Positions 6,215-60,900 of a stretch of 64,000 nt of DNA are shown here, one piece after another. Where the stretch lies: positions 62,001-126,000 of the forward strand of contig QPGO01000132.1 in the NCBI GenBank assembly GCA_008632985.1, in the 5' to 3' direction. The notes below the pieces were generated by a model. It was not told where the DNA came from. It was given only the letters and a program-made list of their open reading frames with translations, and did no database searches. Made by a program: the position numbers and the translations under genes. Source of the DNA: Psammoneis japonica (taxonomy: Eukaryota). Position 1 is the stretch's first letter, and the number at the start of each line of letters is the position of its first letter.

Positions 6215-7570
6215 AGGCAGGGGAGACTGGACAGAAGAAACTCTCAGCTGATGTGGCCCTTCTCAGACGGTGTTTTGCTGGGTCTCCCACAACCATTCTG
6301 GCCATTTCTTCTACCAAAGGTGCACCCTCATTTCAGCATGTCAAGCAATGTTTCTGTGGCAAGTGGAGAGCGAGATTGGGGGCATTGACTCATCATGGAC
6401 TCGCCTCACCAGCATCCTGTGGTGCTCATCCATCTTTTTTGCAATTTTCCTCATCAGATTCCAGGGAAAATTTTCTTCTACATGGACCTTCCAGCCACAA
6501 ATTCCCATGTGTGCCCTTGGGCAATGACCACCAACGAGTGCTTTGTCAAATCTCCAAAAGCCGCTTGCACCCATGTGCACATCTGTCCTCAACACATCCT
6601 TCTTCTTCTTCTTCTTCTTCTTTTTCTTCTTCTTCATTCATCCTGTCAGTCAGTCTCAAGTCCTTCACTCTGTTTGGTGAAAGTGCTGCCTCTGTTGCAG
6701 CACCAACAAGGGTGAGTGCAAGTCCTCCTTTGGCACCAATTGACAAGCTTCCATTTGCTGCATGCGCACCACTGGCATTTTTGCACAAGATCTGGCATGG
6801 TTTCTGCATGTGAAAAAGGTTTTTTTCTGATGATCAACTTCTCACATCATCAAGTGCTCTCATCTCTCTTCCCCCAGCCAGCCCTGGACAACCCTTCCAT
6901 CCTTTGCTCACCAACAAGTCAAGCTCTCTGCACTGTGCAACAATCTTTCTGCTGTTGTTGCACTGCCCAGAGTTGTGAAAGTGCCCCCCTTTTTGGCAAG
7001 CACCACTCAGTGGTTTGGCAGCCATGCTCTGATCTCACTTTTTTTGCTGATCTTAAGAGACAAGTTCATCTGAAAGCAGCTGATCTTTTTGTGCCATTGC
7101 AGCACACCAGCAGCTGTTGTGGCTGTTTCCAGACCATGCAAAAGCAACAAACTTTGCAAAGAGTCATCTCATTGCTCCTGGCTGCTTTGTTGGGGCATCA
7201 CCAAAAGGCAGTGCACAGCCCCCCAGCCAGCCCTTGTCCCCTTCTGCACTCCGCACAGCTGGCAAAGGAGTGAGAGCACCAAACAATCGGGTCTAATTTT
7301 CTTCCCCCCCCCCCCAATGACAATCTCCAAGAGGACCAGCTCTTTGCAGACACTGTGACTGTTCACCAGGGCTTGCAAGCCCCCTTGCTGCTCCCAGCTT
7401 GGCGGCGCTGTTGTTCTTGTGTGGCGCTGGCGCTGGAGAGCGGCTCTGCTGCCAGAGTGGAGAGGACAAATGCTGCTTGTGCAACTGCACATCTCTTAGG
7501 ACCAGCAGTTGCTGTCGTTTGAACTGGGGCACTTGTTGAGTGAGTGAGTTGGGTGTGGCGTGATTGATCT
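6215..7570 (-). mobile_element. Hypermutated (CpG/TpA-depleted) relic of an unclassified repeat, with a (TCT)n poly-Glu tract at 6598-6635
   Basis: TA and CG almost absent. The 6650-6840 segment (minus) resembles 39195-39690 (plus). Confidence 0.6.
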
Positions 7571-7886
7571 CATGCGCAAGAACTCGAAACTGCTGCCTTC
7601 GGGTTCACCTTGAACCTGATGCCATGTCAGACCCAAGTCCACGTTCGACTTTCTTCGAAACGCGCACTTCGCGTCGTAGAAAGCTACGTTGATCCCGTAT
7701 GCAGACGTGAGTCAGTCGTGTCAAGCTCGGTATGACAGCCACGAACCGATCAAAAAGGAATGCAAATACGGTACAAGGAGCCGATGCTTCCCAAGACACA
7801 AACAAGTGACGGAGATGAGACAACAGCAAGCAAATTGTGTCACTTGAATTATTCAGATCGCTTCGTGCAAGAATTGTAAAAACAAA

Positions 7887-17240: not shown

Positions 17241-19164
17241 GGCTCGATTTTAGTCGATTGCGCTGGTCCTGCACTTGGGTTTCCTTCTTCGTACCGGGAT
17301 GAAGCACATGGCGTGCTCTCCTTTCTTTGATTCGTGCTCAGGGTCATGGAATGTTGTCAGACGGTTTTTCCCTTGGGCGTGGATTTACACTGCGACAGTT
17401 CTGCCATCATCGTCCGAGACATCGCAAGTTTGCAAAAGGCACCTCTTCCCCATCCCAGATGAAGCCAGCTCTTCCGAAGCTTGTCTTGATTTCCGCTGCA
17501 GACAACACACAGCTCATGCAATGTCAGCTGATTGGGATGTTCTGAATGAAATCTTTCATGTGGTTGGTTGCCTCTTTGAATTTCCGTCCTGAGAGCCATC
17601 AACAAGCACTCAAGTCGACGTGCAGGGGATCAAAGGACACCAAGACATCCAAGCCCCCTGCGAGTCATTGTCCCTTCTAGCAAAGATGAATGTCTGCATG
17701 GATTGAACATCAAAGGACATTTCCTGGCAGCACCTTGGTTGCTCCTTGGATGCCACATTGTTCTGCGAATCTTGCAGCTCAAGGTTTCTCCATGAGCTCC
17801 AAGTTTGGGTCTGCACTCTGATGCAAAGCATCAAGCCCAGCCCCAACCCTGCATGTGAAAGAGAAATGCAGATGAGCTGACAAGGTGTTTCAGTCTGTCA
17901 ACCAGCCTGCCCACTCCAAACTCATGTCTGGGAACATTCGCAGGAAAGTCAGCACTGTCAAGTCAGCTCAAGATCTTGTGCCTCCTGCCAAAAAGACAGC
18001 TTGCTGGCACAATCCCATCCAACCTGACTGCTGCATCCACTGTCAACTTTCTGGAAGACAGAGACCACATCTTGTGGTGCTCTCACAACAAAGCTTGGCA
18101 ATGCACATTCCTTCAAGCAAGGTTTGCATGAGAAATGTGGTGACATCAACAAGTCACCTCCTTTGCAAGACTTCCTTCTGGTGGCGCACTGGAATCTTGG
18201 TTCCACAAGGAATTGGTTTGTGCTGTCAAGCTTTGTCACTGTGCACCAGAGGCTTTTCACTCTCAGAAGCAGATTGGTTGGCAGCACTTGTTCAATGGTG
18301 GTTGATTTTCCTCTTGTTGGAACAAGGCACAACTCGAACATTTAGAGATGGTTTCCAGCTGTGACTCGCTCTGACACCTCCAGAGTGGATCAGGCAGAGC
18401 TGCAATTGGCAGCCACATCTGGTCTCAGTGGCGAGAATTGTGGGATCAACACAATGATGCAATTCATGGGTGGTGCTGGAATCTTGGTTCCATGTGAGGA
18501 ATTGGTTTGTGCTGTCAAGCTTCATTGCTGTGCATCAGAGGCTTTTCACTCTGAGAAGCAGATTGGTTGATGGCACTTGCTCAACGGTTGATTTTCCTCT
18601 CATTGGAACAAGGCACAACTTGAACATTGTTTGGAGATGGTTTCCAGCTGTGACTCGCTCTGATGCCTCCAGAGTGGATCAGGCAGCTGTGATTGGCAGC
18701 CACATCTGGTCTGAGTGGTGGGAATTGTGGGATCATCACAATGGTGCAATTCACATGGACATGATTCGGAAACTGGCAAGTTGTCAGTGCAACACCTTGA
18801 GACGGAAGTGGAGGTCATCCACTCATGGTGCAGCGACTGTTTGGCAAAGGATCGAGTGGAGCTGTTTGACTCTGTTGATGAGCACCCAACTCACTCCACA
18901 TGCAGGCTCAATGGGTTGGCGATGACAAGACCCGTGTTTAAATCAAGCACCCGAGAGGCAAAAAGGTTGGCTTTGCAAGGCACTCGTGCCATTGCCAGTT
19001 GCTCTGGTGCGACATCACTGTCAGGTGTGATGACGATTCAGGCTGATTGCCACATGCCCCTGCCACACTCAAGGTGCACTGGGGTTGTGGGTTAGCTTGT
19101 TTGCCAGAGTTGCGGGGTGGAAGCATGACAGCACTTTAAAAATAGATTTTGGGTTTTGTTTTGT
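17241..19164 (+). mobile_element. 5'-truncated non-LTR retrotransposon (Ambal-like: RNase H-like domain plus CCHC knuckle), hypermutated, with a 15-bp TSD
   Basis: Relic motifs GPALGFPSSYRDEAHGVLS, DLHCD, ADWDVLNEI, IKGHQD, CIHC..EDRDHILWC, IWSEWWELW. Direct repeat TAGTTAGTTTGTGTC at 17226-17240 and 19165-19179. Confidence 0.85.
18191..18759 (+). repeat. Tandem ~285-bp duplication inside the non-LTR relic
   Basis: Copies start at 18191 and 18478 (ggaatcttggttcca...). Many differences between them are TG<->CA swaps. Confidence 0.9.
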
Positions 19165-35322: not shown

Positions 35323-35440
35323 AAGAACAACACCCGGGATTCCAACGTGGTCCCCCACCGTAGTACTAACCGGGCCAGAAGATGCTTAACTTCGCTGAGC
35401 AGACGGGAAGCGGTGCTGTCATCTTTGTATGGTCGTTCCT
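35323..35440 (-). rRNA. 5S rRNA gene (copy 2), identical to copy 1
   Basis: Exact reverse complement of 13818-13935, with a TTTT terminator. Confidence 0.96.
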
Positions 35441-41600: not shown

Positions 41601-43026
41601 TCAAGGGGCACAGTTCAATGGGGGGAACTCACAAAAGCATTGAACAGTGGAGCACAGAAGCTTCCCAGTGTGTGTCCACTGCCATGCCAATGTGTTCCTT
41701 TTGCAATGATTGGGCTGCATCATTTGAACTGAATTGCGTGCCAGTGAGAGTGCACCCTTGACCAAGGAACATTGGCAAATTCTTGGAAGCCAAGCCAAAA
41801 GACAATGCAAAGCATTTTGTTGTCACTTCAGACAGCACAACAACATCAGCAAATGCAGCCACAAATGACAAAGAAGCAATTGGATCCAGAAGCAACAAGA
41901 AGCTGCAGTTGGCCCCAGACAAACAACATGGCATTGAAGGGTTGAGTGAGCTGTTGATGATGGTGAGTTGCCCCACCTGCAGCATGGATTCATTTGAGGT
42001 TTGTGGTCTCCTCATCTCCACTCAAGCAAAAAATCAAACCACTCACAGTGACTTGCAACCACCTGGACAGCATGGCAAAGCAGTGCCTGCCTGTGCACAA
42101 CAGACCTGTTGATGGAGAAGGCAAAAAGCCACCATCCTCAATGTGCTGCATTGTTGGGAAGCAGCACTTGTGTGTCAAAAAACACTGCCATCAAAATCAC
42201 CATCATGGCCATCAGCAGTGACTTCTGCTCCTGCAAAAAGCACCACAGAGCAGTGCCAGAAAATGATGCCAAACCACCCAGTGGTTCTCTGTGCACAGAT
42301 GAGTGCCAAGAGCCCCACAGAATTGACAAGCCATGACACACATGGCTCAGGCCAAGGTGCATGCTGCTGGAAGCATGTGTGCAATTTGCACTGCCAAATT
42401 TCACAGAAAAATGAGGCTCACAATGAACAAGATGGCAGCAGTGTGAATGAGCTGCTGAAACAAAGCATGCGCACATTGTGCCAAATGGACTTTGCTGCAT
42501 TGACTGATGTGATGTCATGGACATCTCATCATCTTCTGCATTTTTGCCAACAATCTGTCATGTCATTTTTGGCTCACTGCAAAACTGCACTTGATGGTTT
42601 GGGGAGCTGATTGTGTGCATGCATGGTTTCATGTGGCAAACCACTGCATGGTTTGTGGCAGGAGTGGGGTTGTGAAGAAGCTCAACACCAGCTGCGCTGA
42701 AGACAAAGCGAGTCATCTTGTGGACTCTCATGGCATTTTCCTTTGTCCGCAGTGGCACCAATCAAGCAAGGTCCAAGCTGGAATGGACTTGCCACTAAAA
42801 AATGTTGGAGTTCTTTGAGTTGACTCCTCCCAAGACAGTCAACAGTTGGATCATGGACCTGCTTGTTGGTCCATGCTGCAGAATCCTGTTGAAGAGGATC
42901 CATTGTGCCTGTGTGGAGCATTCTGTGGAGAATGTCTGAAGGACAACAGACTGTTCAATGATGTGGTTGATTTCTCCAACAAGGAACAGCATGCCCATTG
43001 GCACATTTTTCAGTGTTGCAATGGCA

Positions 43027-43594
43027 GACGTGTTCCAGTCCCAGGTGACACGCAAAACGACAATCGATTTTGAATGTAAATTATGTATCTATAAGTGTAT
43101 GGAGCATTTTCATATAAAATACTTAAGCGAATTGGCTTTTATAGGCGTCTAGAGTATGCATAATTATGAAGAATTAAATAGTTTTTTGTGGGGTATCAAA
43201 TTCCTCATGGAATATGTATCATAAACTTCCTCAGTAGACTCAATACTGATTGTACGTCCTTACTCTTTATACGAAAATTTCTTTGTAAGTAGCAAATATA
43301 CGAAACATCATCGTAGAAAGATATATTTAGTTAACATCCAAATAACGGCAATAATTTCGCCGAAAATCATCCGTTGTGTTACGATTCGTTTATCGCAATG
43401 AAAAACATTGATGGCACAATAACAATGATTTTGCAACACTCACACGAGTCTTGTTAGTGTTGCAAAACAATAGAATTTGAATAAATCTATACTTTTGGTG
43501 GTGAAAAACCGTTCGTAAGTCAGAGACCGCGCAAAAATCGCGCAAACATGTCGTTTTTGTGCACGATTTGGGTCACGTGCGGCTGGAACACGTC
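43027..43594. mobile_element. 568-bp non-autonomous DNA transposon (MITE) with ~23-bp TIRs and a 4-bp TSD (GGCA)
   Basis: Left end GACGTGTTCCAGTCCCAGGTGAC; reverse complement of right end GACGTGTTCCAGCCGCACGTGAC. GGCA at 43023-43026 and 43595-43598. AT-rich non-coding interior. Confidence 0.88.
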
Positions 43595-45158
43595 GGCAGA
43601 TGTGGCTGATGTCAATCTAGTTGCTGTTTCAGAGGGACCCAGACGCAGACCTCAAGGCTGTTGGTCCAAATTTTAAAACATTGATCATGCAAGTGGCAGG
43701 AGTGCATTGGAGCATTTAGATCACAGGCATTGCAAGGTGCTTGGATGTCATGTTGAAGGAAAGAGATGCTTTGTTTCCTGACATGGTTTGCTGGGTGACT
43801 CTCTGTGAGAAGAGCTTTGCCATCATCAGCCACTCACCTCTGTTTTTCATCTCATTGGTTGGATTGAATCATTTGGTTCATTTGATTGTTTGTTTTTCAG
43901 CATCAGCACGTGCCTGTCATTTTGTGAGTTTGCAGTTTACGTTGATGACTTTCAGCAACCCACAGCCATTGCAGATTGCCAAAGCAAGTGTGTCAAGTGG
44001 CAGAGCAGGAAGCCCAAAAGGACTCCCTTTTGGTGACATTGACTTGCTGACTCAACAGGACTGCAGAGGAGGAGCTCTCCAAGCATGCCAGTGGAAAGCA
44101 TTGGAGCACAATCAAGAAGAGGTTTGGCTTCACACAATTGGTAGCAGCCAGCATGCCACCTGGACTTGATGGTGCAATGTTTCATGTGCTGGTGGTCAGG
44201 GACAGAAGCAAAGCCAGGAATTTGGAGCTGGAGCAGTGCACTCTTTGGCGCTGCATTTCCAACTGCAGCGGACAATGCAGAGAGTGCACACTGCACAGCA
44301 GACAAGCCAATGAGTGTGTTGTCTCCTGTGTGCACCACCAGCACCAACGACATTGTGTTTTTGTGGGAGGCAATGAAAGAAGGTGATGTGAGCAGCACAT
44401 CTCCATGTGCTGAGCATTGGCAAACAAGCCACATTGTGTGAACATCACAACGAATCCAGCTGCCCTGCTGAGGAAGAGTGCAAATGTGGTGGCGTGCGTG
44501 CTGTCAAGAAAGCCAAGAAGTGGCAGACAAGTGACCCAAGTCACATGTGCAGGCCTGCAACCATGATTTGGCTGGCAGCAAGAACACCACCAAGTTTGTT
44601 CTGGGGGGGGGGGGGCAGCAGCACAAAGCTTGTGGTGCTCTCATTCCATGAGGTTAAATGTGAAGCTTGCGATGTCCACAATGCAGGTGCCGGAGGCAGG
44701 CAGGCAGCGCAGGACGAGGAGATACACATCCGCCGGAAACTGATAGATATCGCAGTCATAAGTATATCTAATTGCCCCCAAATGTCCGAGGCTTAGCTAT
44801 GATATATTCATCATTGAATTACTATCATTCAAAATTTATAAGATTTCAAAACACCGGCACTTCTACCCTTCCGATACAAAGATTTAATATGTACTAAGAG
44901 GATTTAGGTATCATATCGACGTTACTATCAAGGATTATTTGTCCGTTGCGGTGAAAACCCCGCGTAAAATTTGGTACTGTATGTACGAAAGTTACGAGCG
45001 GTCACAGACTTGTGAAATCATCCAAGAAGTAATCATCAAAAAATAAGTTGTCGACGTTCGTGCCAAATATGCCCATGGCGGAAGGTGTGTTTGCAGAACG
45101 CTTTAGAACAAAACACCACATAGTGATACTTGATACATAGAGTGCTTGATATCATAGC

Positions 45159-48911: not shown

Positions 48912-50362
48912 TTAGCTAAAGATGTATGAGATTGCAATGTATCCGAGAATCATGGCATAAAACCCAAACGAGGAATTCTTGTTACTTTCCGGTCCAAGCT
49001 GCTGCACAGCCTTTGCAACATTGGCATTCGAGCTTTGCAAGCGTTCCTGCAGTTCCTTGATTTTTCCAGTGGGCGTGGCACGTGTCAAGGGAACCGCCGA
49101 CGCATTGGTAGGCACTGCTCCGCCGCCACCCGCCGCGAGACGATTTCCGCCACCACCCGCTTGAACGTTTTGAATCCCAATTTGCACATCACGCAAAACA
49201 AGCAAAATGTCCTTGGACTGGTCCTGAAGCGCCAAGAGCAGTTGTCGGGTCTGTGCATCTAAATCCACATAGAGAAAGGCTCCTAACGACCGACAGCCAT
49301 TTAAAAATGCTGGAAAGAGAGAATGCATCAGCCACACCACCTCGTACTCTGTCGATTGCGGAAACGCCCACGTCGGCAGTGGGTTGCTTTGCGCGGATAT
49401 GAGAGCAATCTCCACAACAAGCATCACAACCAATCCTGTAAACACCCAGTTACGAGCTTCGCCACTCTTTTTGCCAAGCGTCAGCATAAAAGCCATCATG
49501 CCCCACGTCAGGTAAAACACACCACACTCAATCAAAAACTGCGTCTCATCGTAGCGCTTGTTGTTTTTGATACCGTCCTTTCCGAATTTATTGTACACCT
49601 CACGGAGTTCCATATCAAGCAAAACATCGTAGGCTTGTTTGACATTGTCGAATTCTTCCACCGCATTGGCACTGGGGTTTTTATCCGGGTGGAGTTGGAG
49701 ACTCATCTTTTTGTAGGCGCGCTTGATTTCCAAGGGGTTTGATGCGCGAGTGACACCGAGAGTAGCGTAATAGTTTGGTCCCTTGGCATGTAACTCGTAG
49801 CCTAAGCGAGAAGACAAGAGAGAAAGAGAGTAGAGTGTCAGACAGGGATAAATAAAATTGGTCCTACACAACTTCGGTACGACCAAAACCGAGGCGCCAT
49901 GCGCCATCAAAATTTGCCGCCATTACGTAGAAACATACGGGCTTTCTACGGGTAGCTTGGCCACGTGGAACCAACTTTCTGAGAAACAATGGAGACTGGG
50001 ATGGTAGCGCTTGTTCGACACCATCTCTGGTTGTTTGCAGGCTTTGAACTGACGTTCGAACCTCTAGCCCCCTTTTCTTTAGCGCTTTCGTCCGCAGATC
50101 ATGCGTTTCAGCACCGAGATTGACAGAACGACGATACGAACAGCAGCAAAGAACAAAATACCACGAGGGATGCTGTCGAACACTCACCAGTCTTGACGGC
50201 GGCAAGAGCTGCCAAGAAAGCAATCGCATACATGATGCTCTTTTTTCTCTCAAATCGACCGGGTCTCAAAATCCATGCCGTACACGGATGAACGATGAAA
50301 ACGTAAAAGAAAAATCCGGACAAACCGGAGAGGTCGTCCCCGCCATTTTCTGTTTCACTCAT
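48912..50362 (-). CDS. Membrane DnaJ-domain protein; exons 50362-50188 and 49801-48912
   Basis: NYYATLGV...IKRAYKKMSLQLHPDKN J-domain. The GT-AG intron joins in frame (TG-YEL). TM segments present. Confidence 0.9.
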
Positions 50363-50574
50363 TCTTTATTCTTTTGTTCCAAAAAATTATTCTTGTACAG
50401 GAATTATTTCCTACTACAACCAAAGGATAGCTTGCAAGACTTTTTGACGTTGTGTGTCTTTTTTGTGTCGAGCAGATGATGCAATGATGTGTTTCAACAA
50501 CGTCTTGAGCACGAAACACTCACGGAGTTGTTTTGTTGTTATTGACGTGTTCCACATGGAAGATGGAATTTCGT

Positions 50575-50586
50575 TTTCGCGCCAAA
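50575..50586 (+). promoter_or_regulatory. Candidate E2F site TTTCGCGCCAAA
   Basis: Matches the classic overlapping E2F element. Lies in the divergent DnaJ/MATH-BTB promoter and is conserved at 60918-60929. Confidence 0.55.
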
Positions 50587-50788
50587 AATCGCGCTCAAAG
50601 ACTGCGCCATTTGAACTCTCATGCGCGAATCGCTGCGCGCGCTTGTTTCAAACCGAAATCGGAAGCGACGATCGACGATCAACGATAACGACAACAACGA
50701 ACCAACGACCAAAAAGAACGACATCAAACAAACGACGTTCGGGATAATGTACCACTCATTCTTGCATATCAATCGATAAGGATACGAC

Positions 50789-52030
50789 ATGACTGATTTC
50801 ATTGAAGCTTCTGTAGTCGTTGGGGCCCAGCTTCCATCCACCAACACTCGATCCATCAAATTTCTTTTTCCAAACTTTGAAAATCTTCAGCAGAAACGCG
50901 GAGAGTTTGTCAGATGCCCATCGCTTCCTTGCCATGGTTACTTGTGGAAACTTGTGCTTTACCCACGTGGATCCGAAGGATCAAACGAAAGTGTGGAACA
51001 CATTTCTGTCTTTTTGAAAATTGAAGACACGCACCACGAAACATTTCGGTTTAATGTGATGTTCCGTGCAGGTGGAACAAGCGTCCTTTCTTCCAGACCA
51101 CAGACAATGGAAGTAATCGGAGGAAATTGTGGTGTACAGAATTTTGTTGCCCGTGAACATATCCTGAATCCAGCCAGTGGATGCCTCGTGAATGGGGCTC
51201 TCACGGTCGTGGTTGATTTGCAGGTTCCTCCGGGATTACGCAACGTTCATTGGCAACCCTCCAGCACGCTTCCGAGGGACATGACAAAGATTTACAAGTC
51301 ACAGGACTATTGCGATGTCACCTTTGCCGTCGGCAACAAAACGTTTCATGCTCATAAAGCCATTCTAGCGAAACGCGCTCCCGGGTTTGCAGAAGTATTC
51401 GAGTGCGAATCCAACAAAGAGAATAAGAAGGATGAGACGATTGTGATCGATGGTATTGAGCCTTCTCTCTTTTCGTACTTTCTCCATTACGTATACGCAG
51501 ATGAACTGTCGGATGAAATTCGCACAGTCAACGATGCCATGGCAATGCTCGACCTTGCGGACAAGTTTGACTGCACTGGTCTCAAACTTCAGGTAGAATC
51601 CAAAATGGCAGAAGCACCCAGCATCACAGAAGGCAACGTGTTGGACTTGCTTTCCTACGCGGACCGTAGGAATTGCGCCCTCCTCAAGGAAGCTGCCATT
51701 GGCTTTTTCGTGGCCCACAGTAATAACGTGATGCAGTCGAACGCATTCAAGGCTCTCGATTCGCCCGACTTGCTCCGCGAGATCATGACGGCCACGGTTC
51801 ACCCCCGAGCTTTGGACCAACAAGACACGGACAAGGATGTGGATAGCATGAGCGTTGCTGCAATGCGTGGCAAGCTCGAGAAAATGGGACTCGATGTGGA
51901 TGGTTCTCGGGAAACTCTAGTGGAGCGTCTCAAAGCGGTTGCGGCTGCTGAGGGCTCGAACGAGGGTTCGCGAGAACAATCCGAGAATCTTGGATCGGAC
52001 GAGCAATCCAACAATGGCGGTGCTGAATAG
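50789..52030 (+). CDS. MATH-BTB (SPOP/BPM-like) protein copy A with a SAP-like C-terminal motif
   Basis: HGYLWKLVLYPRG (MATH), DVTFAVG..FHAHKAILAKR (BTB), LEKMGLDVDGSRETLVERL. Confidence 0.92.
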   Translation: MTDFIEASVVVGAQLPSTNTRSIKFLFPNFENLQQKRGEFVRCPSLPCHGYLWKLVLYPRGSEGSNESVEHISVFLKIEDTHHETFRFNVMFRAGGTSVLSSRPQTMEVIGGNCGVQNFVAREHILNPASGCLVNGALTVVVDLQVPPGLRNVHWQPSSTLPRDMTKIYKSQDYCDVTFAVGNKTFHAHKAILAKRAPGFAEVFECESNKENKKDETIVIDGIEPSLFSYFLHYVYADELSDEIRTVNDAMAMLDLADKFDCTGLKLQVESKMAEAPSITEGNVLDLLSYADRRNCALLKEAAIGFFVAHSNNVMQSNAFKALDSPDLLREIMTATVHPRALDQQDTDKDVDSMSVAAMRGKLEKMGLDVDGSRETLVERLKAVAAAEGSNEGSREQSENLGSDEQSNNGGAE

Positions 52031-52509
52031 CAACATGTTCCAACAGGGGAGATTTGATACGTATGAAAACAATGGAGTTTGTTTGTTCTTTCATCTGCAC
52101 CGAGTTGGACTCGGGAGCATCTTGATGTTTGTTGTACACCGCAGCTTCTTTTGGACGCCGCTGGTTTGTACAATATCAATTTGTTGTACACCGTAGCTTC
52201 TTTTGGACGCGGCTGGACTATTGTAGGGTACTAGAGTACTGCATAGAAGTAAAATATTCATAGACAATCATCCTATTGTAACTTGAGCACAAAGAAAGAC
52301 TTCCTGATTTTGCGAATCTCAACCTGAAGCAACCCACGGAATACCCTGCTGCTCTAACGAGAGACGAGTACACAACCTTATAGGCAGATAATAAGAAGAT
52401 TATGTCTAATCGACATGCGATAAACGGTGTCCCTGAAGAGTGAGATAGATTGCTCAACTGCCACAACCGTCTATGTTCGACAAACCCAAAGTGATCCCCA
52501 GAACCCCGC

Positions 52510-52793
52510 TCCTTCGCATTCCACCTTTCTTAGGTCGCCTTGACGATGTGTGTGAGATATTTGGTTTTCGAAATGCTGATTGCACTGGTTGTGGATTTTT
52601 CCTTGATTTGGTTTCTCAACATACGGTAGCAGTTAAAAATTTTATCGACCACGTCCATGCCACTGCAGGAAACGAAGCAGGAAGCATCTGTAAGATCAAC
52701 TCACAAATAACACTTGAAATCCTATCCCCAACATACGGTATTATGTTACTCACCGAACGACTTCCCTAATCTGACTGAAACCTTGTTCATCTA
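52510..52793 (-). pseudogene. Duplicated 3' fragment of the cyclophilin gene (end of exon 1, intron, exon 2)
   Basis: Aligns with 62812-63072 (tggacgtggtcgataaaa…gagaaaccaaatcaagg) and carries indels. Confidence 0.8.
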
Positions 52794-52889
52794 CGAGCTC
52801 CGTTTCAGCTCAAGTCCCGAACATGGTTTAAGACCGTGATTTCCAACACGAGGTATGAGGAGTCGAGCAACTCTAGATGCTAATTTTAC

Positions 52890-55800
52890 ATCTCAGCTCT
52901 TATTTTCACAGCCTTTTGTGAATCTCTCTGCATCACCAGACCCCAGAACCACTTCTCATCACCCATCACAAGAAGGCAATTCCCTCTGCCAAGCCCCCGG
53001 TTGTTTTGGCAATGAACTGAGAAAATCACAACACTTCTTCTTCTGTTCAGTTCTCAGCAGTGGGATTGCGCTCAGCATGCAACTTGTGTCCCTTGCGAGA
53101 CGCAACCCACCTCCAAATGGCAGCAGAGCACCAGCCGTTTACACTTGCCTCCAAGCCCAGTCACAAATGCTTTTGATTTTTCCGCAATGCATCCACTGTT
53201 TGATGAAAGGTTGCTGCAAGAGAATGTTGCACCACTTTGCCTCCCAAAATGATGTCGAATCTGTCCATGCATCCAATGCCCGACACCTCTTCTTCACCAC
53301 TTCAAAGAATGTGTTGCACTCTGCTCTTGTCACATTCTCCAAGTTCTCAGCCACTTGCTGCTTGCAGTCTTTCAGTGCATGGATGCACCCATTTGTGAGA
53401 ACTCTCACTTGGCAAGTTCAGGGCTGTCAATGACAGTTGTCACAACCTCATCATGGAGACAATCATCACACTCATTGTTGACCCCCTTCTGCTTCATTGT
53501 CTCTGCCTTCAATTGGTCAAGACACTTGCATGGTGCAGGATCATGCTTTGTCACAAAATTGTGAAGCTCCTGCACATGCTGCTCTGAAAAAACCAACCCA
53601 TGTGAGCAATTGTTTTTTTTGTCATTGAGCTTCTTTCTGTCACCATCCACATGGCTTGCTTCATCCTGCTCTAACTGACTGCCAGTGCATTAACCAGAGT
53701 CTCAGCTGGGGCAAAGATGCTCATTTCCAACAGTCTTTTTGGTGGAAATGGGCAGTGCACAGATCTCTGCAGCCCACTTTTGATGCTTGGAAGCACAATG
53801 AAATGAACACTTCTCTGCTTGCATGAGAAAACATGCAAGCTCACCATGCAAGAACACATGTGTGTGGCTGCACTGATCACAGCACTGTGTGACAGCTGCT
53901 GGGGCTTGTGTCCCTTCCCATGCCAGATTGCAGAGACAACAATTTCTCACAGAAGAGTGCTCACACCACCAATGGCCAACTGCACCTGTTGACAGTTGGA
54001 GAGTTCCCAAACCCAAAACAAAGCACAAAATTTACATTTGAAGTGCTGTGCCACACCCTTCTGCCCAGAGACCCACACCCCCAGTGCCCTGATGAAATGG
54101 TTTGAGCACCTCAAGCAGCAAAATACCAAGTTTCTCAAATGCTCAGCTTGAGCACAAGCTCAAACATTGTCAGCAATTTTCTCAACCTCTGTGCACTGCC
54201 TGAGTGAGCAAGGCATTTGTGAGCCAAATGATGTGGGTGCTTTGTTCTTTGCCATGCAGCAACTTCCAATGATGCAACCACACCTTTGCTTCTGCATTTT
54301 GGCACAGTGGCACCTTCCCAGTGGTTTCAAAATCATGGCCATGAATGCCATCATTGTTGTGCAAGTTTCATGACTCCCACCATTGGAGCCAGACAAAGGC
54401 ACCAATTGGAGCCACTGACTGCCCAGCCCAGACACTGATCCTCCAAATCTGCCATCCAAAAGACAAAGCATGTGAGCTTCACTCTGCAAGTGGGGAAATC
54501 ATCCATTGAAAAGGTGAGACAAACTGTTTGGAACCTTTGACAACATTGAAGATGGCAAGTTCATTGGCATCTCTCCTGAAATTTAACTCTGTGCCAGTTG
54601 TTGACACACACAAAACATGCAAAGGTGAGCTTTTTGCAAGAAGTGCCAAGACAATGAGAACAAAAAGGACCTGTGCTGCCAGGCACCAAAAGCTCCAGGA
54701 CCAGAATGATTCAAACCAGAGGGTGCCTCTTGGCCCTCAGCAGAGATCAGCTGCAGAGCAGCCAATTGGGGGGTGCCTGAAGTTTGACAGAGATGATTCA
54801 CAAAACAATCCTGAAGCTTTGTGCATCATTGTTGAACAAGCACACATTTGGCACATTCAGCCAAGGTGACAGCAGAAAAACTGTGGCCAGTCAGAGCAAG
54901 GGGCAAGACAATCCTGGAACTTCAGATGCAAATGTCCCACATGCCAAAGCCTCATGGGAAAGAAAATCCCTTGAGGAACACCCCAAACCTGCCGACAAAT
55001 CTGAGAGTGCACTGTCTAAAAATGGTGCCAACAACACACCAAGAGGAAGTGGCAATTTTTTCTCAAGCATGTGACATTGGGTCAGCAAGCATCTGCAGAA
55101 AGAACAGTGACAGAGCATGATTTGCCAAAGCCATGAGAATGACATTCTTTTGCTTTTGCAATGACAACCTTGAACAATGTTTTAAGTGCTGACATCAAAG
55201 CAATGGCAACTCTGCCCAATCAATGTGCAAGAAGAAACTGCAAGAATCTGAAGAACAGAGTGTGAGAGGCATCATCAGAGGATGGAGGATCTGCAAGCCC
55301 ACATTGACTTGTGGCCAACTGAGTGTCTGGCCAAATGTTTTGACAACACATGGAAGACCTTGCTGTTCTCAGTGGAAAAGTTGGTGGCCAGCAAAGGATG
55401 GTGCAAATCAGAAAATGCCAGTCAACAAGGCAATGAGAGGCATGAGGTGGCTGAGCAACTCTAAAACAAAAACTCTGCAAAAGCTGCTTTCATGATTGTG
55501 AGTGGATGTCATCTGCAACTGTGACAAGCAACAACAAATGCAAAGGACAAATGACAGATTGGGTCTCACAATGCATGATGACCCAGTTGATGCAGGGTGG
55601 GAATCACAGAGAGATGTGATCCTCAACTTTGTCAGGAAGTCCAAAGCATCAGCAGAGGCCACTGGAGAAACCTTGGAGGAGGCAGCCCCCCTGCTGGCTG
55701 CAAACAGCCATGCCACTCAATGAAGAAGAAGCATCAATGTGGGACAGTCTGCCATCTTTTAAGTTGCACTGCAAGCCATCATTTGTGGAAAAAGGAAAAG

Positions 55801-58800
55801 ATCCAGCCAGGCCAAGCAGACAGACAATGTGGGCTCAGCTGAGTGGCAAGGCAGGAATGCGTGCAAGAGCCACAACTGCCTGCAGGTTGGTTGTGAACAA
55901 CAGCGCAAATCCAGGAAGAGTTTGCTCTCAACATGAGACTCATGTGTTGTCTCAAACAAACATCAGACATCAGAGACAATTTTTGCTGGACAAGCAGCTC
56001 TCAAGTGCAGAAATTGAACAAAATGGCAGGACCAAGGAGACCTTGCTCTTGTTCTTGGAGGAGACTCAAATGATGGTGTGGGAGCCACTCCCTTCTAAAC
56101 ATGGGCAAATGTGCTTTGCACAAAGGTGCAATGACCCAGAGGCACCTGTCTCTCCCATCACCAGTGCACAGCATTTTGTGGCAAGAACTGCTGGCTGGGT
56201 GTGCAAATTGATGCTGTGCTGGCTTCATCAGCTGTGGAAGTTGGCAAAGAAATTGCAGCTGGCTTTGGAGACTTTGACTGCACCTCAGATCATCAACTGC
56301 TTTGGACAGATCATGAAAAGGTGAGTTTGTCTGGATGACCTCTGCTTTCAGCATTGTCCGGGTTGACAACAGACCAGCTGGCAGGCAAGTTGCACAAACT
56401 GAAGATCTCAACAAAGCACCACAAATGGCATCAGAGCGTGCAACATGGTGATCAGACAGACTTTCTTGTGGTGAATTTTTTTAATCTGTCACAGTTAAAA
56501 ATTTTTTGTGGTTTCAAACCTCATTGGTTGTGTGCGTGGTGACAATTTGTCAACTGTGAAAGATGAGCTTCATTGCTGTGGAGCCCGCAACTGTCCTGTG
56601 AGGCAACACCATTCACTGTGAAACAGCCCACCATTTTCCCTGTGAGAGTGATTCCTGCAAAACCTGCAATTTAAAATCATTTGCATTGCAAACATTCCAT
56701 TTTGTTGTTTGCGCTTAATTCAAATGATGCAGACAGAGACAAAGGCTTGTCAATGAATTCAAAGAGGCGATGGCTGAATTCCAAGAGAAAGGCACAAAGC
56801 TGATGCACAAAATGGTGGAGAGCCGGAGCTCACTGCAGCAAAAGTGGAGTGCACCACCACCTTCGTAAGTGCAAGCTTGGACCTCTTTGAACTCTGCTTG
56901 CACTGCCACGCAGTTGAGAGCACAATCTCAATGCCAAGACACAGCAAGCAATCCAAACACAACGCCTTCAAATGAGTGACACTCTGTTCACAACGGCAAA
57001 TCATTGCAAAGAAGTGCAAAATTTTTTGTGAGAGTGCACGGGACAACAACAGCAACCAATTGAAACTGCAACACAGACTTGCTGGTGCATCTGCGGTGGC
57101 AGATTCGGTCACTTCTGCCGCCAGTTCCCGATCCCGCAAAGCTGATTCTGGACCAGTCAGGTGAAGCAACATTGCTCTGATCCACCTTGTTCATTGCAAA
57201 CAAATGAAAAATGCTTTGTGAGAGTGTGCAGGACAACAACAGCAACCAATTGAACAAAGCCGCAATGCAGACTTGCAGGTGCATCTGCCGCCGCCGATTT
57301 TGGAGCTTCTGCTGCCGGCTCCCAACCCATCGACATGGAATTGGCAGCTGCTGCGGTTGTTGCAGTTGACCCCCCCTGCTCTTGACCACAAACAGCAGAG
57401 AAACTTGGGAAGCCTTTTAAAATGAGCCCAACAACTCAGGCAACCTCCAATGGGTTGCCTCCCCACTCTCTGCCTCTGCAGTCTTTCTGGATCTGGATGC
57501 AGAAATTGGAGAAGACGGATGCAACGTAAGTGAACACATCAAAAACAAATGAGGCTCTTTTCGTGCATGCCTTTTTTGAAGAGTTTCACATGTGGCAAAG
57601 AACTTTTCATGCGGTGATTCTGAGAGCTGCAGGAACAAGCACCGCCTGCAGTCTTTCTGGATCTGGACACAGAAATTGGAGAAGACAGATGTGTTGTTGG
57701 CAAATGTGTCAAAAACCAATGAACCTCTTTTTGCACACACCTTGTTTGAACAGTGTAATTTGTGGCAACTTGTGACAATTCTGGACGCAAAACTCTGACA
57801 TGCGCGATTGTGCCAACACTGCAGAAAAGCAAGTTTGTGATGTGCGTGCACACAACACACAACAACACGCCAGAGCTCAGCATTCTGGACATGGCAGATT
57901 CGTGACACCACACTCGCGATCCCAAAATTCAAGCTGCACCCAAATAAAACCCCATCTTGACCAACCAGAAGCATGTGTTGAGCCACTGTCATTGGCCAAT
58001 GGGGCAAAGTCTTTCACCGCCATGGCCGGTTGTCGATTTGCAGATTTGCAACCACACACAGGATCCACGTGAATCACAACAGCGCATGCTCTTGTTTTTC
58101 AAACTTTGGGGAGAGGGTGTGCTGTTGTGAAGTGTGTAGAAAATTGCGCATGTAAAACATGCACTGAAAATGCCACAGAGCAACGGGCTGCGCAAATCTG
58201 GGAAACATGAAGAAAAATGAAGGTGGGTCACGTGCATGCGCGAAGTGCTGCAGACTGCACACGTGCAAAGACACACACACGTGAGTGAGGAGGACAAAGT
58301 TAAAACCAAGTTCAAATTGATTGTGATCAAAAGGAAACCAAACCATGCATCACAAAAAACAGATTTTGATCCCAATTAAATTGAACATTGCACGCATTTG
58401 ATTGAAGCTTGTAAAAGAAAAGTCAATGAGACATCAGATGAAATTCAAGAAACAGCTTCATTTTGTGGAGCACTTTTGCTGGCAATTTTTCAATTCTGCT
58501 TGTCAACAATTTGGACAATGCACATTAAAAAAATTTACAAAGGAAAGTGGATGCCACTGTGTTGCCACCTCTGATGGGGTCAAAAGAAGCTTGAGCATGA
58601 CAGCCTTCTACCAGAAAGAACAATGACTCTCATGAGCAGCACAGATCATTTCAGAGGATGCGAGGAACAACTTGAACACAAGACACTCTTCTTCTTCAGA
58701 AGCAATGATCTGTGACAAGAGGCAAAGTGCAAGTGTGGTGTTGCAAGCTCCACATGAATAAAGTTGAGTCAAGCAATGCAGCAAACAAGGCAAGAAAGGA

Positions 58801-60900
58801 AATCCAACCACACGGCCACTTGCAAAAAAACTTTGGCACAATCAGAGAGCATGTCTTGATGCCACTCATTGATGAGTGCACTGCACACAAAATGATGTGG
58901 GTGCCATGGCATGTCACTCAAACCAGATTGTGGCACAGCACCTGCAAGCAACAACAAGAGAGTGCTGCAAGCCAAAAAAGGAAGCCAAAGATCTGCAGCA
59001 AGTGGAGAGTTCAAAACACAATGTCCACAAAGGGTGAATGCCAAAGGAGCTGCACCCAAACACAAAGAAAAAATGATTGACCACAACTGCACAATCAGAA
59101 AAGAGCCCACCACAGAGTCAAGCAAGCTGCTGGGAAAATCACACTGGCTCTGCAATGGTCACAGGGGGGCAGGAGAATCAAGCACAGACAAGGTCTTGTG
59201 GGCCAAGAGTGGCATGGAGAATGAAGAATGCAAACATTTGCAAAATGGTTGAAAGCTCTCCTTTCATTTGGGCTCCACTCTTCCAAATGACTTTGGATGC
59301 TCCACAGGCACAGAAGCAGCAACTTTGGTGCAGCTTGCATCAAATCCTGCAGGGAGTTGAAGAGCATGCAGTGAAATTTGTCAAACAGCTCAAATGACGC
59401 TTGTGACAGACCACACAACACCTTTGGCAAGAACAATGTCATGGATCAAGTTGTTGCAAAAATTCTACTTCAATTGCAACATTGATTTTCTTGCTCCCAT
59501 GCCAACTCTTTGTCCTTCTTGTTGAGTCAACAACAACTTTCTCATTGCAGTGTTTGCCAATTTGGGGTGCAAGAGGGAGCAGCTTCTCACAAGACAAACA
59601 TCTGCCAATTTTGTGGCAAAAAGCAGCATGCTTCTGACATTGCAAGAGTGGTGGTGACAGGGCTGGAATCTTGCCATGCCACTGGAACAGAGAAAAATGG
59701 TGTGACATGCACTGTGGCTGGCCAAAAGCAGGACACCCATCAAGATCTTGTTGGAGAGACTTTGGCAAGAAGAAGCATTCACAGCATGATGTGCTCTCTG
59801 TCAATGGGCCAGAACCCACACCTCTCCCACCTGCGCAAACACAAACTGGACAAGCAGATTTTCAAACCAATTTCACCCTGGTCACATTCCTTGGCAGATG
59901 ATGGAGATCACAAAATGCTTGATTCTGGAGCAGAACTCTGCTGCACAAGACTGCTGCTGCAAAGATGTGGCCAGCACAAGCAGGTGTGTTGCCTTGCTGG
60001 GAGGACAGAGGTGCCACCAGATGACACACTTCCTGCAAAAGTTTTGACAGAGTGGAGTTGAGATTGCACCCACAGGCACCAGTTCATCTCAGCTGACCAA
60101 GAGGGCTTGGACAAGTGGTTGTTTGTGCAGCACAAAGCACAACCAATGGTGGAGACCGCACCTGCTCAAAGAGTTTGAGCAGGTGCCACGCTGTGACACA
60201 AGCATTGCTGATGGCTCCTTCAAAGATGCCATGGCAGCAGCAGCAATGATTTTGCCCCCCCCCCCCCTTCCAAAGGACACTCTTGCAGATGCCACGGAGT
60301 TGACAAAATGCCAGTCCAGAACTCAGATTTTGCTGCTTGCACTTTAGAGGTGAGCTTGTGCAGCACTTGCTTTGCAATGAATGCAATGGTCAAAATCTCT
60401 TTGACACAGTTCACTGGATTCAGAAAGTGATGCAAGCAGCTGTGCCTGCATGTGCCAACAAGGTCCAAGGTGTGTGTGTTGAGATCGAGAAGTCGCCAGC
60501 TCAGCGACCTCACACTTGTTGGTCCGCAGTCTCCTGGAGATGCTGAGCGTGGAGGAGATGGATTGAATGACCAAACAATGTAAAAGAAAAATCTGGACAA
60601 GTCCTCAGAGAGGTCGTCCTTGCCATTTTCTGTTTCACACCTGTGCTTGTGCTGCAAGCAAGTCGCTCTTTTGCAGAGAAAAGAAAGTGCACTTCATCTG
60701 TCCAACACCAGCAGCTGACACAGCTTGCAAGACTTTGCACCAATGTTTTGTGTCTTTTTTCGTCGAGCAGGAGCAGATGATGCAGTGATGTGTTCAACAA
60801 CGTCTTGAAGCACGAAACACTCGCCGCGGTGTTTTGTTTCATGTGGACGTGTCCCACATTGTGGAGGACGCAAGCAGCGTGCAAGCAGAGCACATTTTTC
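52890..60900. mobile_element. Hypermutated transposon block between the duplicated segments; includes an Ambal-like non-LTR relic at ~58600-60500 (+)
   Basis: TA/CG depletion. Relic motifs VTGG..KVLW, WPKAGHPS, IADGSFKDAMAAAA, FRGEL. Short internal duplications at ~57000/57190 and ~57475/57645. Confidence 0.75.

Follow-up and report, generated by a model that had tools for sequence, protein, structure and literature searches.

The window analysed here is a 64-kb stretch in which otherwise ordinary host sequence is interrupted by four blocks, A to D, of aberrant composition (Table 1). The host features include a 5S rRNA gene adjoining block C that is identical to a second copy at 13818-13936 (each scoring 100.8 bits against RF00001), a segment with a MATH-BTB-SAP gene that is present twice, and a DUF6824 domain detected in the window, which, given the taxonomic range of that family, makes a diatom source plausible.

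Table 1. Features of the 64-kb window and the segments obtained by two-state segmentation
Feature	Position	Strand	Remarks
Block A	6081..7676		TA-depleted, 5 TA in 1596 bp; CG-depleted core 6214-7402
Block B	17293..19092		TA-depleted; CG-depleted part 17495-19217; no protein match
5S rRNA gene adjoining block C	35322..35440	-	RF00001, 100.8 bits; retains its TA
Left edge of block C	35445..35760		Upstream 5S-rDNA spacer; its homologue lies at the second 5S locus
Block C	35488..43076	+	Predicted copia-type LTR retrotransposon relic, TA and CG erased; basis: composition, segmentation, reverse transcriptase
Gag-like stretch of block C, weak	37364..37849	+	P0029 residues 41-212, E 8.8e-4
Reverse transcriptase of relic	40248..41393	+	Single frame, two TGA stops and one other stop
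RNase H-like stretch, weak	41495..41638	+	Downstream of the reverse transcriptase; P0044, E 6.6e-4
Insert in block C	43030..43600		Normal TA/CG composition; high-copy repeat, not hypermutated
Block C continued past insert	43718..44654		Segmentation; CG-depleted part 43595-44669
Duplicated host segment, copy 1	50280..52793	+	MATH-BTB-SAP gene and upstream region; normal composition; reference paralogue
Block D proper	52794..60554		TA- and CG-depleted; exactly between the copies of the 2.5-kb host duplication
Right margin of block D	60555..61065	+	Host-derived; upstream region of second MATH-BTB gene copy
Copy 2, remainder	61066..63072	+	Normal composition: TA o/e 0.58, CG o/e 0.91
TA-depleted segments	6081-7676, 17293-19092, 35488-43076, 43718-44654, 52902-61065		Two-state segmentation
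CG-depleted segments	6214-7402, 17495-19217, 35737-43028, 43595-44669, 52865-60485		Two-state segmentation

An earlier note on this DNA had described four sharply bounded blocks poor in TA and CG and rich in TG and CA; sliding windows and 100-bp bins recover them at the same coordinates, and dinucleotide counts pooled over the 19,215 bp of the blocks and the 44,785 bp of the window outside them agree. TA occurs 58 times in the blocks (observed/expected ratio, o/e, 0.05) and 1836 times outside (o/e 0.59), and CG 185 times (o/e 0.17) as against 2513 times (o/e 1.00), while TG rises to 2048 (o/e 1.92; outside 3297, o/e 1.16) and CA to 2335 (o/e 1.75; outside 3192, o/e 1.16). When the outside frequencies are scaled to the length of the blocks, 1623 TA and CG are missing and 1599 TG and CA are in excess. 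The AA ratio is 1.15 both inside and outside, and the block sequence is complex rather than microsatellite. In the two-state segmentation the TA-depleted segments overhang the CG-depleted ones at five of the ten segment ends. A simple model in which every TA and CG is converted predicts ratios of 1.94 for TG and 1.96 for CA (observed 1.92 and 1.75), although it misses an excess of the GC dinucleotide (1.04 predicted, 1.32 observed) and a deficit of AT (0.92 predicted, 0.82 observed); the GC excess may reflect a wider TAC/GTA preference.

Block C is, to judge by its RVT_2-type reverse transcriptase, the relic of a Ty1/copia-type retrotransposon. An exhaustive phmmer search with the reverse transcriptase ORF found 334 homologues at E<=1e-3 (best 7.9e-25); all 17 long homologues match 40248-41393, with E-values down to 2e-44, and Pfam RVT_2 is present in eight of the nine that were scanned. 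Pfam sees nothing in the relic reverse transcriptase itself, nor in the plus-strand frames of block C (E<=0.1), and a search with the same ORF for homologues of near its length gave 42 candidates, none of them significant. The weak gag-like stretch contains the zinc-knuckle-like sequence HHSHGKMGHKFPDC, which we take to be such a motif. The long reverse transcriptase homologues revealed no integrase match in block C, and nothing above chance resembles an LTR pair at the ends of blocks C and D. In the public run X1, where single-copy DNA has a depth of 55-70, the summed depth over block C is 220-830, which indicates related copies elsewhere. Over the insert that interrupts this block it reaches 3000-10500, against about 60 for single-copy sequence, corresponding to roughly 50-150 copies; this insert and the second 5S spacer escape the TA loss.

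The other blocks are less informative. Block A, when reversed, has short collinear matches (64-82 % identity) to 38766-39912 in block C and appears weakly related to the copia relic, in an alignment too gapped for substitution counts. Block B contains a tandem duplication of 287 bp (18189-18466 and 18476-18753). No mobile-element gene was recognized in blocks B and D by protein comparison or by six-frame Pfam searches (E<=0.1), 20 block ORFs gave no Pfam match at E<=0.01, and a protein atlas contained no usable match for a 234-aa ORF of block D. A Pfam match to TMEM213 (E 0.09) in a read-through search of blocks B, C and D was set aside as due to chance. Because blocks B and D have no recognizable element gene, and the first 1.5 kb of block D is single-copy in X1 at at least 85 % identity, their status as transposons is only assumed; the view that the blocks are transposon relic thus stands for block C and weakly for block A, and finds nothing recognizable to support it in blocks B and D.

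At conserved columns of the relic reverse transcriptase, all six tyrosine positions now read CAT or CAC (four) or TGC (two), four of seven arginine positions read TGG, CAA or CAT, leucine codons have become TCA or CCA, and valine codons GCA. On this codon evidence the TA loss in block C is mutational in origin. The CG part, with its o/e of 0.17 and arginine CGN codons turned into TGG, CAA or CAT, would fit a decay pattern of the 5-methylcytosine (5mC) type.

Relatives of the relic are not equally TA-poor. Among 79 metagenome loci with related reverse transcriptases, TA o/e is mostly a normal 0.5-0.8 and falls below 0.46 only in L013 (0.16) and L001 (0.30); these loci were found by reverse transcriptase homology, so that the restriction of the signature to retroelements is partly a selection effect. 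Six database proteins, picked for low tyrosine content, absent from the 79 loci and compared as proteins only, have histidine or cysteine at most or all conserved tyrosine positions (P0010 10/11, P0016 7/8, P0015 7/8, P0141 3/3, P0070 4/4, P0054 4/4), whereas control reverse transcriptases keep the tyrosine (12/13, 8/9, 12/13 and 11/13). Partly converted loci also exist (L019 3/8, L001 5/11, L013 6/8). P0010 retains an open frame of 541 aa and 13 of 14 conserved arginines, and changes that have nothing to do with TA or CG affect 30 of 235 conserved columns, in the range of the controls (23-32 of about 250); in L013, 141 of 166 conserved columns and the CGN arginine codons are intact, yet six of the eight tyrosines are converted. 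From the sequences of P0010 and L013 we take the process to be hypermutation rather than slow decay, since saturation at TA without other divergence implies a rate about 50 times the background at one dinucleotide.

The spectrum can be read directly from a four-way alignment of L013, L019, L007 and L026, polarized by majority and made up of metagenome contigs rather than of this genome. It contains 16 TA>TG/CA changes at 14 TA sites (nine of them in L013), eight TG/CA>TA changes at 124 sites and 11 CG>TG/CA changes at 17 sites; the remaining transitions number 18 and the transversions 14. In L013, nine of 14 TpA sites have changed as against 12 of 635 other sites (p=1e-11). When A>G events are sorted by 5′ neighbour, T gives 15 events at 27 sites, A 5 at 81, G 6 at 81 and C 1 at 121, so the enrichment of A>G at TpA that the earlier note had anticipated is present, whereas the loss of ApA predicted by its suggestion of Pol eta-type mutagenesis at WA motifs is not (5/81 against 15/27, and an unchanged AA ratio), and that suggestion is abandoned. 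Both strands are affected about equally: Tyr>His and Tyr>Cys changes number 30 and 21 (p=0.26), and TA>TG and TA>CA events nine and seven in the four-way alignment. Some converted sites are common to L013 and L019 and others are found in only one of the two, which implies several rounds of conversion.

The strand-symmetric transitions at TpA are distinct from CpG decay, as had been proposed, and the two losses are separable. CGN arginine codons have been lost while tyrosines are kept in L067 (9/9), L052 (8/8) and L053 (13/13), and CG decay occurs alone in L052, L053, L062 and L070; conversely, TA has been lost without CG in P0010, in L013 and in the margin of block D. Within block D, positions 56500-58500 have a CG o/e of 0.4-0.56 although TA o/e is 0.06-0.1.

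The right margin of block D belongs to the second copy of the host duplication (60555-63072 as a whole), which is linked to copy 1 at 50280-52793. The margin has a single TA (o/e 0.03) and retains 23 CG (o/e 1.15), and its paralogue at 50280-50745 has 11 TA. Aligned copy-1 TA sites correspond to TG at four positions, CA at three and TA at three, with no change in the reverse sense (7:0, a small sample compared between two sequences without an outgroup). The TA loss in copy 2 is limited to about 500 bp touching block D and stops at no structural boundary; outside the margin the TA-bearing differences between the copies are symmetric (13 vs 16), and transitions involving TA are the largest class in the normal duplicate (30/78). 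At the left edge of block C, TA sites of the paralogous 5S spacer read TG at 10 positions, CA at 9-10 and TA at two, with one reverse case (20:1, again from two sequences without an outgroup and with an inferred, uncertain polarity); here the TA are gone and seven of 11 CG are kept. The reference spacer is itself odd (TA o/e 1.6, TG o/e 0.37) and is not depleted. As far as sequence comparison goes, these two flanks show that the TA-erasing process acts on the chromosome and reaches adjoining host DNA. Sequence duplication is not the trigger: the 2.5-kb duplicate is untouched save for the 500 bp at block D, and the insert of 50-150 copies has normal composition, so that the description of the process as repeat-targeted does not hold.

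Run X1, whose source may be a lineage closely related to that of the assembly, offers independent support for the block sequence. X1 contigs match the window at 35414-37532 with four differences and at 43567-44417 with two, and at 37504-38422, 38959-39844, 39825-40898 and 52101-54400 with none each; 8.1 kb of block sequence is thus reproduced with six differences in total, in agreement with the assembly. X1 and the window differ in the flanks, and X1 is therefore not the same sequence re-filed. In single-copy X1 contigs, all four differences from the window inside the blocks lie at such dinucleotides, two as CG/CA differences and two as TG>CA doublets, and indicate continuing instability at these sites. 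TG<>CA doublets also make up 22 of the 110 difference events between tandem copies inside the blocks, as against 3 of 194 and 0 of 246 in duplicates of normal composition (p=3.5e-8). We considered one-step dinucleotide flips for these doublets and dropped them in favour of two steps that pass through TA or CG as an unstable intermediate; which of the two was used cannot be read from the doublets alone. Run X2, which is RNA-like (GT..AG joints), gives no cover in the blocks, and is not evidence on expression.

We think it likely that the blocks record a hypermutation of A:T to G:C that is specific to TpA and starts from transposon relics, and to which ordinary CpG decay has been added. The blocks would be the remains of dead mobile elements in the nuclear genome of a diatom-like eukaryote, rewritten on the chromosome by two separable, strand-symmetric and context-specific transition processes. 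The first would convert TA to TG and to CA in about equal measure, at a rate tens of times the background, and may be complete before other decay begins; it would be seeded at the relic and extend 130-580 bp into adjoining host DNA, and duplication is not its trigger. The second would be the usual CpG>TpG/CpA decay expected of methylated transposons, over a domain slightly smaller than that of the TA loss and incomplete or absent in places. We infer that silent chromatin recruits an enzyme as the agent, and that the process serves as, or resembles, genome defence. The enzyme might deaminate adenine at TpA, as the TadA-like deaminase also put forward in the earlier note would, or it might oxidize thymine there to 5hmU or 5fU that mispairs with G. 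In its most specific form, to which we give a little less than even weight, the proposal is that the lineage has a chromatin-guided TpA base modifier (a dsDNA adenine deaminase or a thymine dioxygenase), seeded at elements, which spreads a few hundred bp in cis and converts TA irreversibly to TG or CA. The lineage with such an activity would probably comprise diatoms and the hosts of the metagenome contigs.

A less likely reading, to which we still allow some weight, needs no dedicated system: as a by-product of copying or repair, for instance where a polymerase or a repair system mis-pairs bases at TpA, silent, methylated, late-replicating chromatin would drift to an equilibrium free of TA and CG. 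The regional effect, which spreads into neighbours as a chromatin state would, and the block sites that are still changing accord with it, as do the general under-representation of TA outside the blocks and the prominence of TA transitions even in the normal duplicate. It does not, however, readily explain why P0010 and L013 are saturated at TA when they are otherwise no further diverged than intact relatives, nor why intergenic DNA elsewhere in the window keeps a TA o/e of 0.5-0.9 in sliding windows, and the known error-prone WA context of Pol eta does not match.

Editing before integration is improbable. An ADAR-, ADAT- or TadA-like deaminase would here edit retroelement RNA and minus-strand cDNA at U/TpA, so that new copies would lack TA from the start, with CpG decaying later on the chromosome, and the demonstration of the signature in copia reverse transcriptase relics, the sharp block edges, the sparing of repeats that are not retroelements (the 2.5-kb duplicate and the high-copy insert) and the erasure of TA in P0010 and L013 without other decay all accord with it; yet host DNA beside blocks D and C is affected and the loss stops inside the duplicated host unit, erasure is near-complete on both strands about equally, ApA is spared in contrast to the neighbour preference of ADAR, and the several rounds implied by L013 and L019 are hard to accommodate. 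That modified bases in heterochromatin led to errors of assembly or base calling is largely refuted and merits hardly any belief, for although modified bases cause systematic long-read errors and the pattern is limited to the blocks, the X1 contigs reproduce the blocks while differing in their flanks, the same local context is resolved as TG in one copy and as CA in the other, and the signature recurs in unrelated public contigs. An ancestral or foreign composition, in elements that never had TA or CG, has nothing but the composition itself to commend it and is refuted for block C, where the conserved tyrosine codons are all CAY or TGY, and it is scarcely credible given the normal TA of most of the 79 loci, the partly converted intermediates (L019, L001 and L013) and host-derived margins in the same state.

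The hypermutation at TpA that we favour is like fungal RIP in that mobile DNA is hypermutated on the chromosome by two-strand transitions at one dinucleotide, saturating, with sharp limits and with destruction of coding; as in RIP, the effect spills over by hundreds of bp into neighbouring single-copy sequence. Unlike RIP, in which C:G>T:A changes, typically CpA>TpA as in Neurospora, create TpA, the dominant change here is A:T>G:C and destroys it, only the CpG part being C>T, and whereas RIP is triggered by duplicates of several hundred bp or more, the linked 2.5-kb duplicate, the high-copy insert and the second 5S spacer are spared. RIP depends on an enzyme of the RID/DNMT4 type and takes place before meiosis. 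Many diatoms encode DNMT4, which is related to fungal RID and of unknown function, according to a published study (PMC9998398). Decay of CpG through deamination of 5mC resembles half of the signature, CG>TG/CA on mobile-element DNA and partly incomplete, but is unable to remove TpA, the loss of which is here both more complete and more extended; the LTR retrotransposons of P. tricornutum are CpG-methylated (PMC2806351). APOBEC3 and ADAR likewise inactivate retroelements by context-specific hypermutation, and ADAR gives A>G, but they act on single-stranded cDNA or dsRNA before integration and with a one-strand bias, whereas here the strands are equal and the flanks are affected. ADAR favours a 5′ U or A and disfavours a 5′ G; in our data a 5′ A is not favoured (5/81 against 15/27 for T) and both strands are changed, and in place of the plus-strand G>A in GG or GA of APOBEC3 the changes lie symmetrically at TA and CG. 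Oxidized thymine can mispair with G, giving T>C, and older work has 5hmU preferring TpA. By analogy, a TET/JBP-type thymine-modifying route acting on transposons would be comparable to the 5hmU system of dinoflagellates, a SAR lineage, in which TET/JBP-type thymine modification is repeat-enriched and silences transposons, although the passages that describe it report no mutational signature (PMC11572971).

Joint erasure of TpA and CpG in repeats was not found in the literature listings covered, subscription journals lying outside that coverage, and the searched passages of diatom transposon papers make no mention of hypermutation, dinucleotides, TpA or RIP. The hypermutation at TpA described here appears new and points to an undescribed process. 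To our knowledge, every hypermutation defence against mobile DNA described so far works either by cytosine deamination (RIP, APOBEC) or by RNA editing (ADAR). If our reading is true, A:T>G:C mutation would bring to eukaryotic genome defence a new chemistry that differs from those of RIP and APOBEC, would be a naturally occurring parallel to engineered adenine base editors, and would remove all tyrosine codons, TAA and TAG from its targets. Because the spill-over reaches host promoters, the process would matter for how genes next to transposons evolve, and it would offer a sequence-only marker of old silenced DNA. It would also explain swarms of TA-free, tyrosine-free pseudo-ORFs that can mislead gene prediction. 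The earlier note had ascribed the many Cys/His/Trp/Gln-rich ORFs of the blocks to the loss of TAA and TAG stops, which holds in part: those four residues are indeed enriched in block translations, and tyrosine amounts to 0.1 % as against 2.4 %, but the frequency of stops declines no further than from 36.6 to 27.4 per 1000 triplets because TGA rises.

Pooled over 19,215 bp, the four blocks contain 58 TA dinucleotides (observed/expected ratio, o/e, 0.05) and 185 CG (0.17), with 2048 TG (1.92) and 2335 CA (1.75), compared with o/e values of 0.59 for TA, 1.00 for CG and 1.16 for TG/CA in the other 44,785 bp of the window. The loss of TA relative to flanking DNA (0.05 against 0.59) and the sharp edges of the blocks, both proposed in the earlier note, are thus borne out, the edges being seen at the positions it had given in sliding windows as well as in 100-bp bins. 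The GC content is the same in the blocks and the rest (48.0% and 47.5%), and the block sequence is complex, so that simple repeats are excluded. When the outside frequencies are scaled to block length, 1623 TA and CG have been lost and 1599 TG and CA gained. Simulated conversion of all outside TA and CG to TG/CA gives TG 1.94 and CA 1.96, matching the blocks, and over the 16 dinucleotides this joint model fits better (rms 0.128) than conversion of CG only (0.196) or of TA only (0.257). Simple conversion does not predict the scarcity of AT (o/e 0.82 in the blocks, 0.93 outside) or the 2.2-fold enrichment of GCA/TGC, the highest of any trinucleotide, and GC also exceeds the model (1.32 in the blocks, 1.04 simulated, 0.98 outside); these deviations may reflect a longer motif, for instance GTA/TAC, or else the ancestral composition of the elements.

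Features of the window, with their coordinates
Feature	Position	Strand or orientation	Description
Block A	6081-7676		TA- and CG-depleted
Block B	17293-19092		TA- and CG-depleted
Block C	35488-43076 and 43718-44654		TA- and CG-depleted
Region of block C matched by homologues	40248-41393	+	reverse transcriptase
Block D	52794-60554		TA- and CG-depleted; 7.8 kb
Host duplication	50280-52793 and 60555-63072	direct	2.5 kb; MATH-BTB-BACK-SAP gene, 413 and 409 aa; 84-95% DNA identity
5S rRNA gene	13818-13936	+	RF00001, 100.8 bits
5S rRNA gene	35322-35440	-	RF00001, 100.8 bits
Insert in block C	~43030-43600		570 bp; GC ~40%; 39-nt palindrome at 43429-43467
Protein-kinase paralogues	8172-9435 and 21225-22488	+ and - (inverted)	75-79% DNA identity
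Larger kinase paralogue	19639-22935		1098 aa; additional EF-hands

An artefact of assembly can largely be rejected, since contigs of X1, the sole public run covering the region (single-copy depth 55-70), reproduce the block sequence. This run is independent sequence because many flank positions differ from the window, and comparison of its contigs confirms the assembly in the blocks: four differences were found over 35414-37532, none over each of 37504-38422, 38959-39844 and 39825-40898, two over 43567-44417 and none over 52101-54400. All four places in the blocks where single-copy contigs and window disagree are sites of TA/CG/TG/CA type, with CG versus CA at positions 35683 and 35891 and a TG>CA doublet at both 36086-7 and 44178-9; the process may still be active, but every one of these differences may be a CpG event.

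The earlier note took the recognizable content of the blocks to be transposon relic, which holds for block C, finds a weak echo in block A and is an assumption for blocks B and D. A Pfam search found nothing in the blocks, but the ORF at 40830-41414 brought up 334 homologues when used as the query of an exhaustive phmmer search (best E-value 7.9e-25), RVT_2 is present in eight of the nine long homologues scanned, and 17 of 17 long homologues match block C by tblastn (E-values down to 2e-44). Together with weak RNase H-like and gag-like matches in the expected order, this reverse transcriptase homology identifies block C as a copia-type retrotransposon relic; searches revealed neither paired LTRs nor an integrase in it. 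With a summed X1 depth of 220-830, block C has relatives at other places in the genome; block D, over its first 1.5 kb, is single-copy in X1 at an identity of at least 85%. In the opposite orientation, block A shows weak similarity to block C. Protein searches found no recognizable content in blocks B and D, and their mobile-element nature is therefore assumed.

That the loss of TA and CG is mutational follows from codon changes at conserved columns of the reverse transcriptase (134 columns with 20 or more homologues, of which 60% or more agree). All six conserved Tyr columns are changed in block C, to CAT or CAC at four and TGC at two, four of seven conserved Arg columns read TGG, CAA or CAT, and conserved Leu has become TCA or CCA and Val GCA. 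Nor is the composition of block C ancestral: related elements are not TA-poor, most of 79 metagenome loci with a related reverse transcriptase having a TA o/e of 0.5-0.8, and only L013 (0.16) and L001 (0.30) fall below 0.46. Several of 150 database homologues are without any Tyr; these proteins, which come from Logan and ENA contigs, were chosen for that very property and were examined as protein only, and they carry His or Cys at 45 of 49 conserved Tyr columns (51 of 55 with block C included), whereas four intact controls keep Tyr at 43 of 48. Tyr>His and Tyr>Cys stand at 30:21 (p=0.26), so the two strands are hit about equally.

The loss of TA can be separated from that of CG. One Tyr-free homologue, P0010, is an open 541-aa frame in which 10 of 11 conserved Tyr are converted and 13 of 14 conserved Arg kept, and its changes unconnected with TA or CG affect 30 of 235 columns, compared with 23-32 of about 250 in intact elements. 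Intermediates exist among the metagenome loci, with Tyr converted at three of eight columns in L019, five of 11 in L001 and six of eight in L013; all three retain Arg CGN codons, and 85-90% of their conserved columns are intact. In block D, CG o/e is 0.4-0.56 over 56500-58500 while that of TA is 0.06-0.1, and TA-depleted segments extend 130-580 bp past CG-depleted ones at five of ten segment ends. Conversely, loci L067, L052 and L053 keep all conserved Tyr (9/9, 8/8 and 13/13) and have lost CGN codons, and in L052, L053, L062 and L070, which are related copia elements, CpG is strongly depleted (o/e 0.12-0.28) although TA is normal (0.62-0.77) and the Tyr codons are intact. The latter four, presumably from other hosts, show the usual decay of methylated DNA with no sign of the TpA process, and each loss is thus found without the other (L013, P0010 and the margin of block D as against L067, L052 and L053).

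The context of the change is seen in L013 and its close DNA relatives L019, L007 and L026 (92-93% identity), one copia family whose four members have each reached a different stage in the loss of TpA. In a four-way alignment of these metagenome contigs, which are not from the Psammoneis japonica window, polarized by a majority rule that favours no direction, 14 consensus TA sites show 16 TA>TG/CA events (nine TG, seven CA), nine of them in L013; 124 TG/CA sites show eight changes to TA, 17 CG sites 11 changes to TG/CA, and the remaining sites 18 transitions and 14 transversions. L013 has changed at nine of 14 TA sites versus 12 of 635 others (p=1e-11). In this family A>G occurs at 15 of 27 sites after T, five of 81 after A, six of 81 after G and one of 121 after C; the enrichment at TpA anticipated in the earlier note is therefore present, and the Pol eta-type mutagenesis at WA motifs that it had offered as a mechanism is excluded by the low rate at ApA. 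The converted sites of L013 and L019 are partly common and partly different, pointing to several successive rounds. Some former TA sites of L013 are now CG.

Of the 110 difference events that distinguish tandem copies within the blocks, 22 are TG<>CA doublets, compared with three of 194 in a normal-composition 2-kb duplicate and none of 246 in a kinase paralogue pair (p=3.5e-8). Such doublets are expected if the two copies independently resolved a TA or CG of their ancestor. Alternatively, they may arise from a new TA or CG made by ordinary transition and then quickly resolved; a TA and a CG intermediate give the same doublet.

The process also reaches host DNA. Block D exactly fills the interval between the two copies of the host duplication, an arrangement that could have come about by insertion with a long target duplication, or by unequal exchange. 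Copy 2 begins with a 510-bp stretch (60555-61065) that precedes the second MATH-BTB gene and contains one TA (o/e 0.03) with normal CG (1.15), as against 11 TA in the paralogous stretch of copy 1. Aligned copy-1 TA sites read TG at four, CA at three and TA at three positions in copy 2, no site shows the reverse change (7:0, p=0.016), and the copies have 23 CG in common; in the other 2 kb of both copies the composition is normal and TA differences are symmetric (13 versus 16). The depletion thus stops within the duplicated unit, where there is no structural boundary. The two 5S rRNA genes are identical, are separated by 21 kb, point in opposite directions and belong to no tandem array, and one adjoins block C, whose left edge (35445-35760) is the upstream spacer of that gene and can be aligned with the spacer of the other locus. 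TA of the paralogous spacer is TG at ten, CA at 9-10 and TA at two positions at the block C edge, with the reverse once, in a comparison of the two spacers alone, so that its polarity is inferred, and with a reference spacer of CTAG-type low complexity that is the opposite extreme to the blocks (TA o/e 1.6, TG 0.37). This edge has kept seven of 11 CG. Both affected flanks, the right margin of D and the left spacer of C, speak against editing of the elements only before integration, and on these alignments the TA-erasing process acts on the chromosome and spreads to neighbouring DNA.

The targeting of repeats as such, which the earlier note had supposed, is not borne out, since three repeats in the window escape depletion, namely the linked 2.5-kb duplicate, the spacer of the other 5S locus and the insert lying in block C. 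Over the insert, whose composition is normal, X1 depth sums to 3000-10500, compared with about 60 where sequence is single-copy (roughly 50-150 copies), so that it is a high-copy short repeat, possibly a MITE or solo LTR. It would seem that the relic or its chromatin, and not homology, acts as the trigger.

We conclude that there is a strand-symmetric TA>TG/CA process, tens of times faster than background and separable from CpG decay, which is seeded at mobile-element relics (assuming that B and D are such) and spreads to adjoining DNA. Its agent is most likely an enzyme recruited to silent chromatin. This could be a DNA adenine deaminase that works on TpA, or a TET/JBP-type enzyme that would oxidize thymine to a product pairing with G; oxidized thymine can mispair with G, and 5hmU prefers TpA. 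In dinoflagellates, a TET/JBP-type enzyme makes 5hmU that marks and silences transposons (PMC11572971). The CpG loss fits deamination of 5mC, and CpG methylation is found on the LTR retrotransposons of Phaeodactylum tricornutum (PMC2806351). Many diatoms encode DNMT4, related to the RIP enzyme RID and reported as of unknown function (PMC9998398), but these are cytosine methyltransferases and would not obviously explain A:T>G:C. Like RIP, the TpA process is chromosomal, element-directed and saturating, has leaky edges and destroys genes; unlike RIP, it is without the defining C>T chemistry, creation of TpA or trigger by duplication. APOBEC, ADAR and Pol eta differ in context or strand pattern; ADAR accepts a 5' A, which is not favoured in the L013 family. 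A full-text search of mostly open-access literature brought up no account of TpA and CpG being erased together in repeats, and two diatom transposon papers (PMC2806351 is one) do not mention hypermutation, dinucleotides, TpA or RIP. We regard the process as a form of hypermutation of mobile DNA, with a substantial chance that its chemistry is categorically new.

The window as a whole is gene-dense eukaryotic DNA of 48% GC, encoding protein kinases, an ABC transporter, a subtilase, a multicopper oxidase, DnaJ, MATH-BTB proteins and a DUF6824 protein. Contigs of a second public run, X2, skip short GT..AG-ended stretches at 45668-45757, 49800-50187 and in other flanking genes, so that X2 has the look of RNA data and speaks for small introns in these genes. 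The larger kinase paralogue is CDPK-like because of its added EF-hands. In the normal-composition duplicate (50721-52793 versus 61042-63072) the largest class of transitions is that in which one copy has TA (30 of 78, with about 23% expected as estimated from site counts), and TpA may thus be somewhat unstable throughout the genome, where the TA o/e outside the blocks is 0.59.
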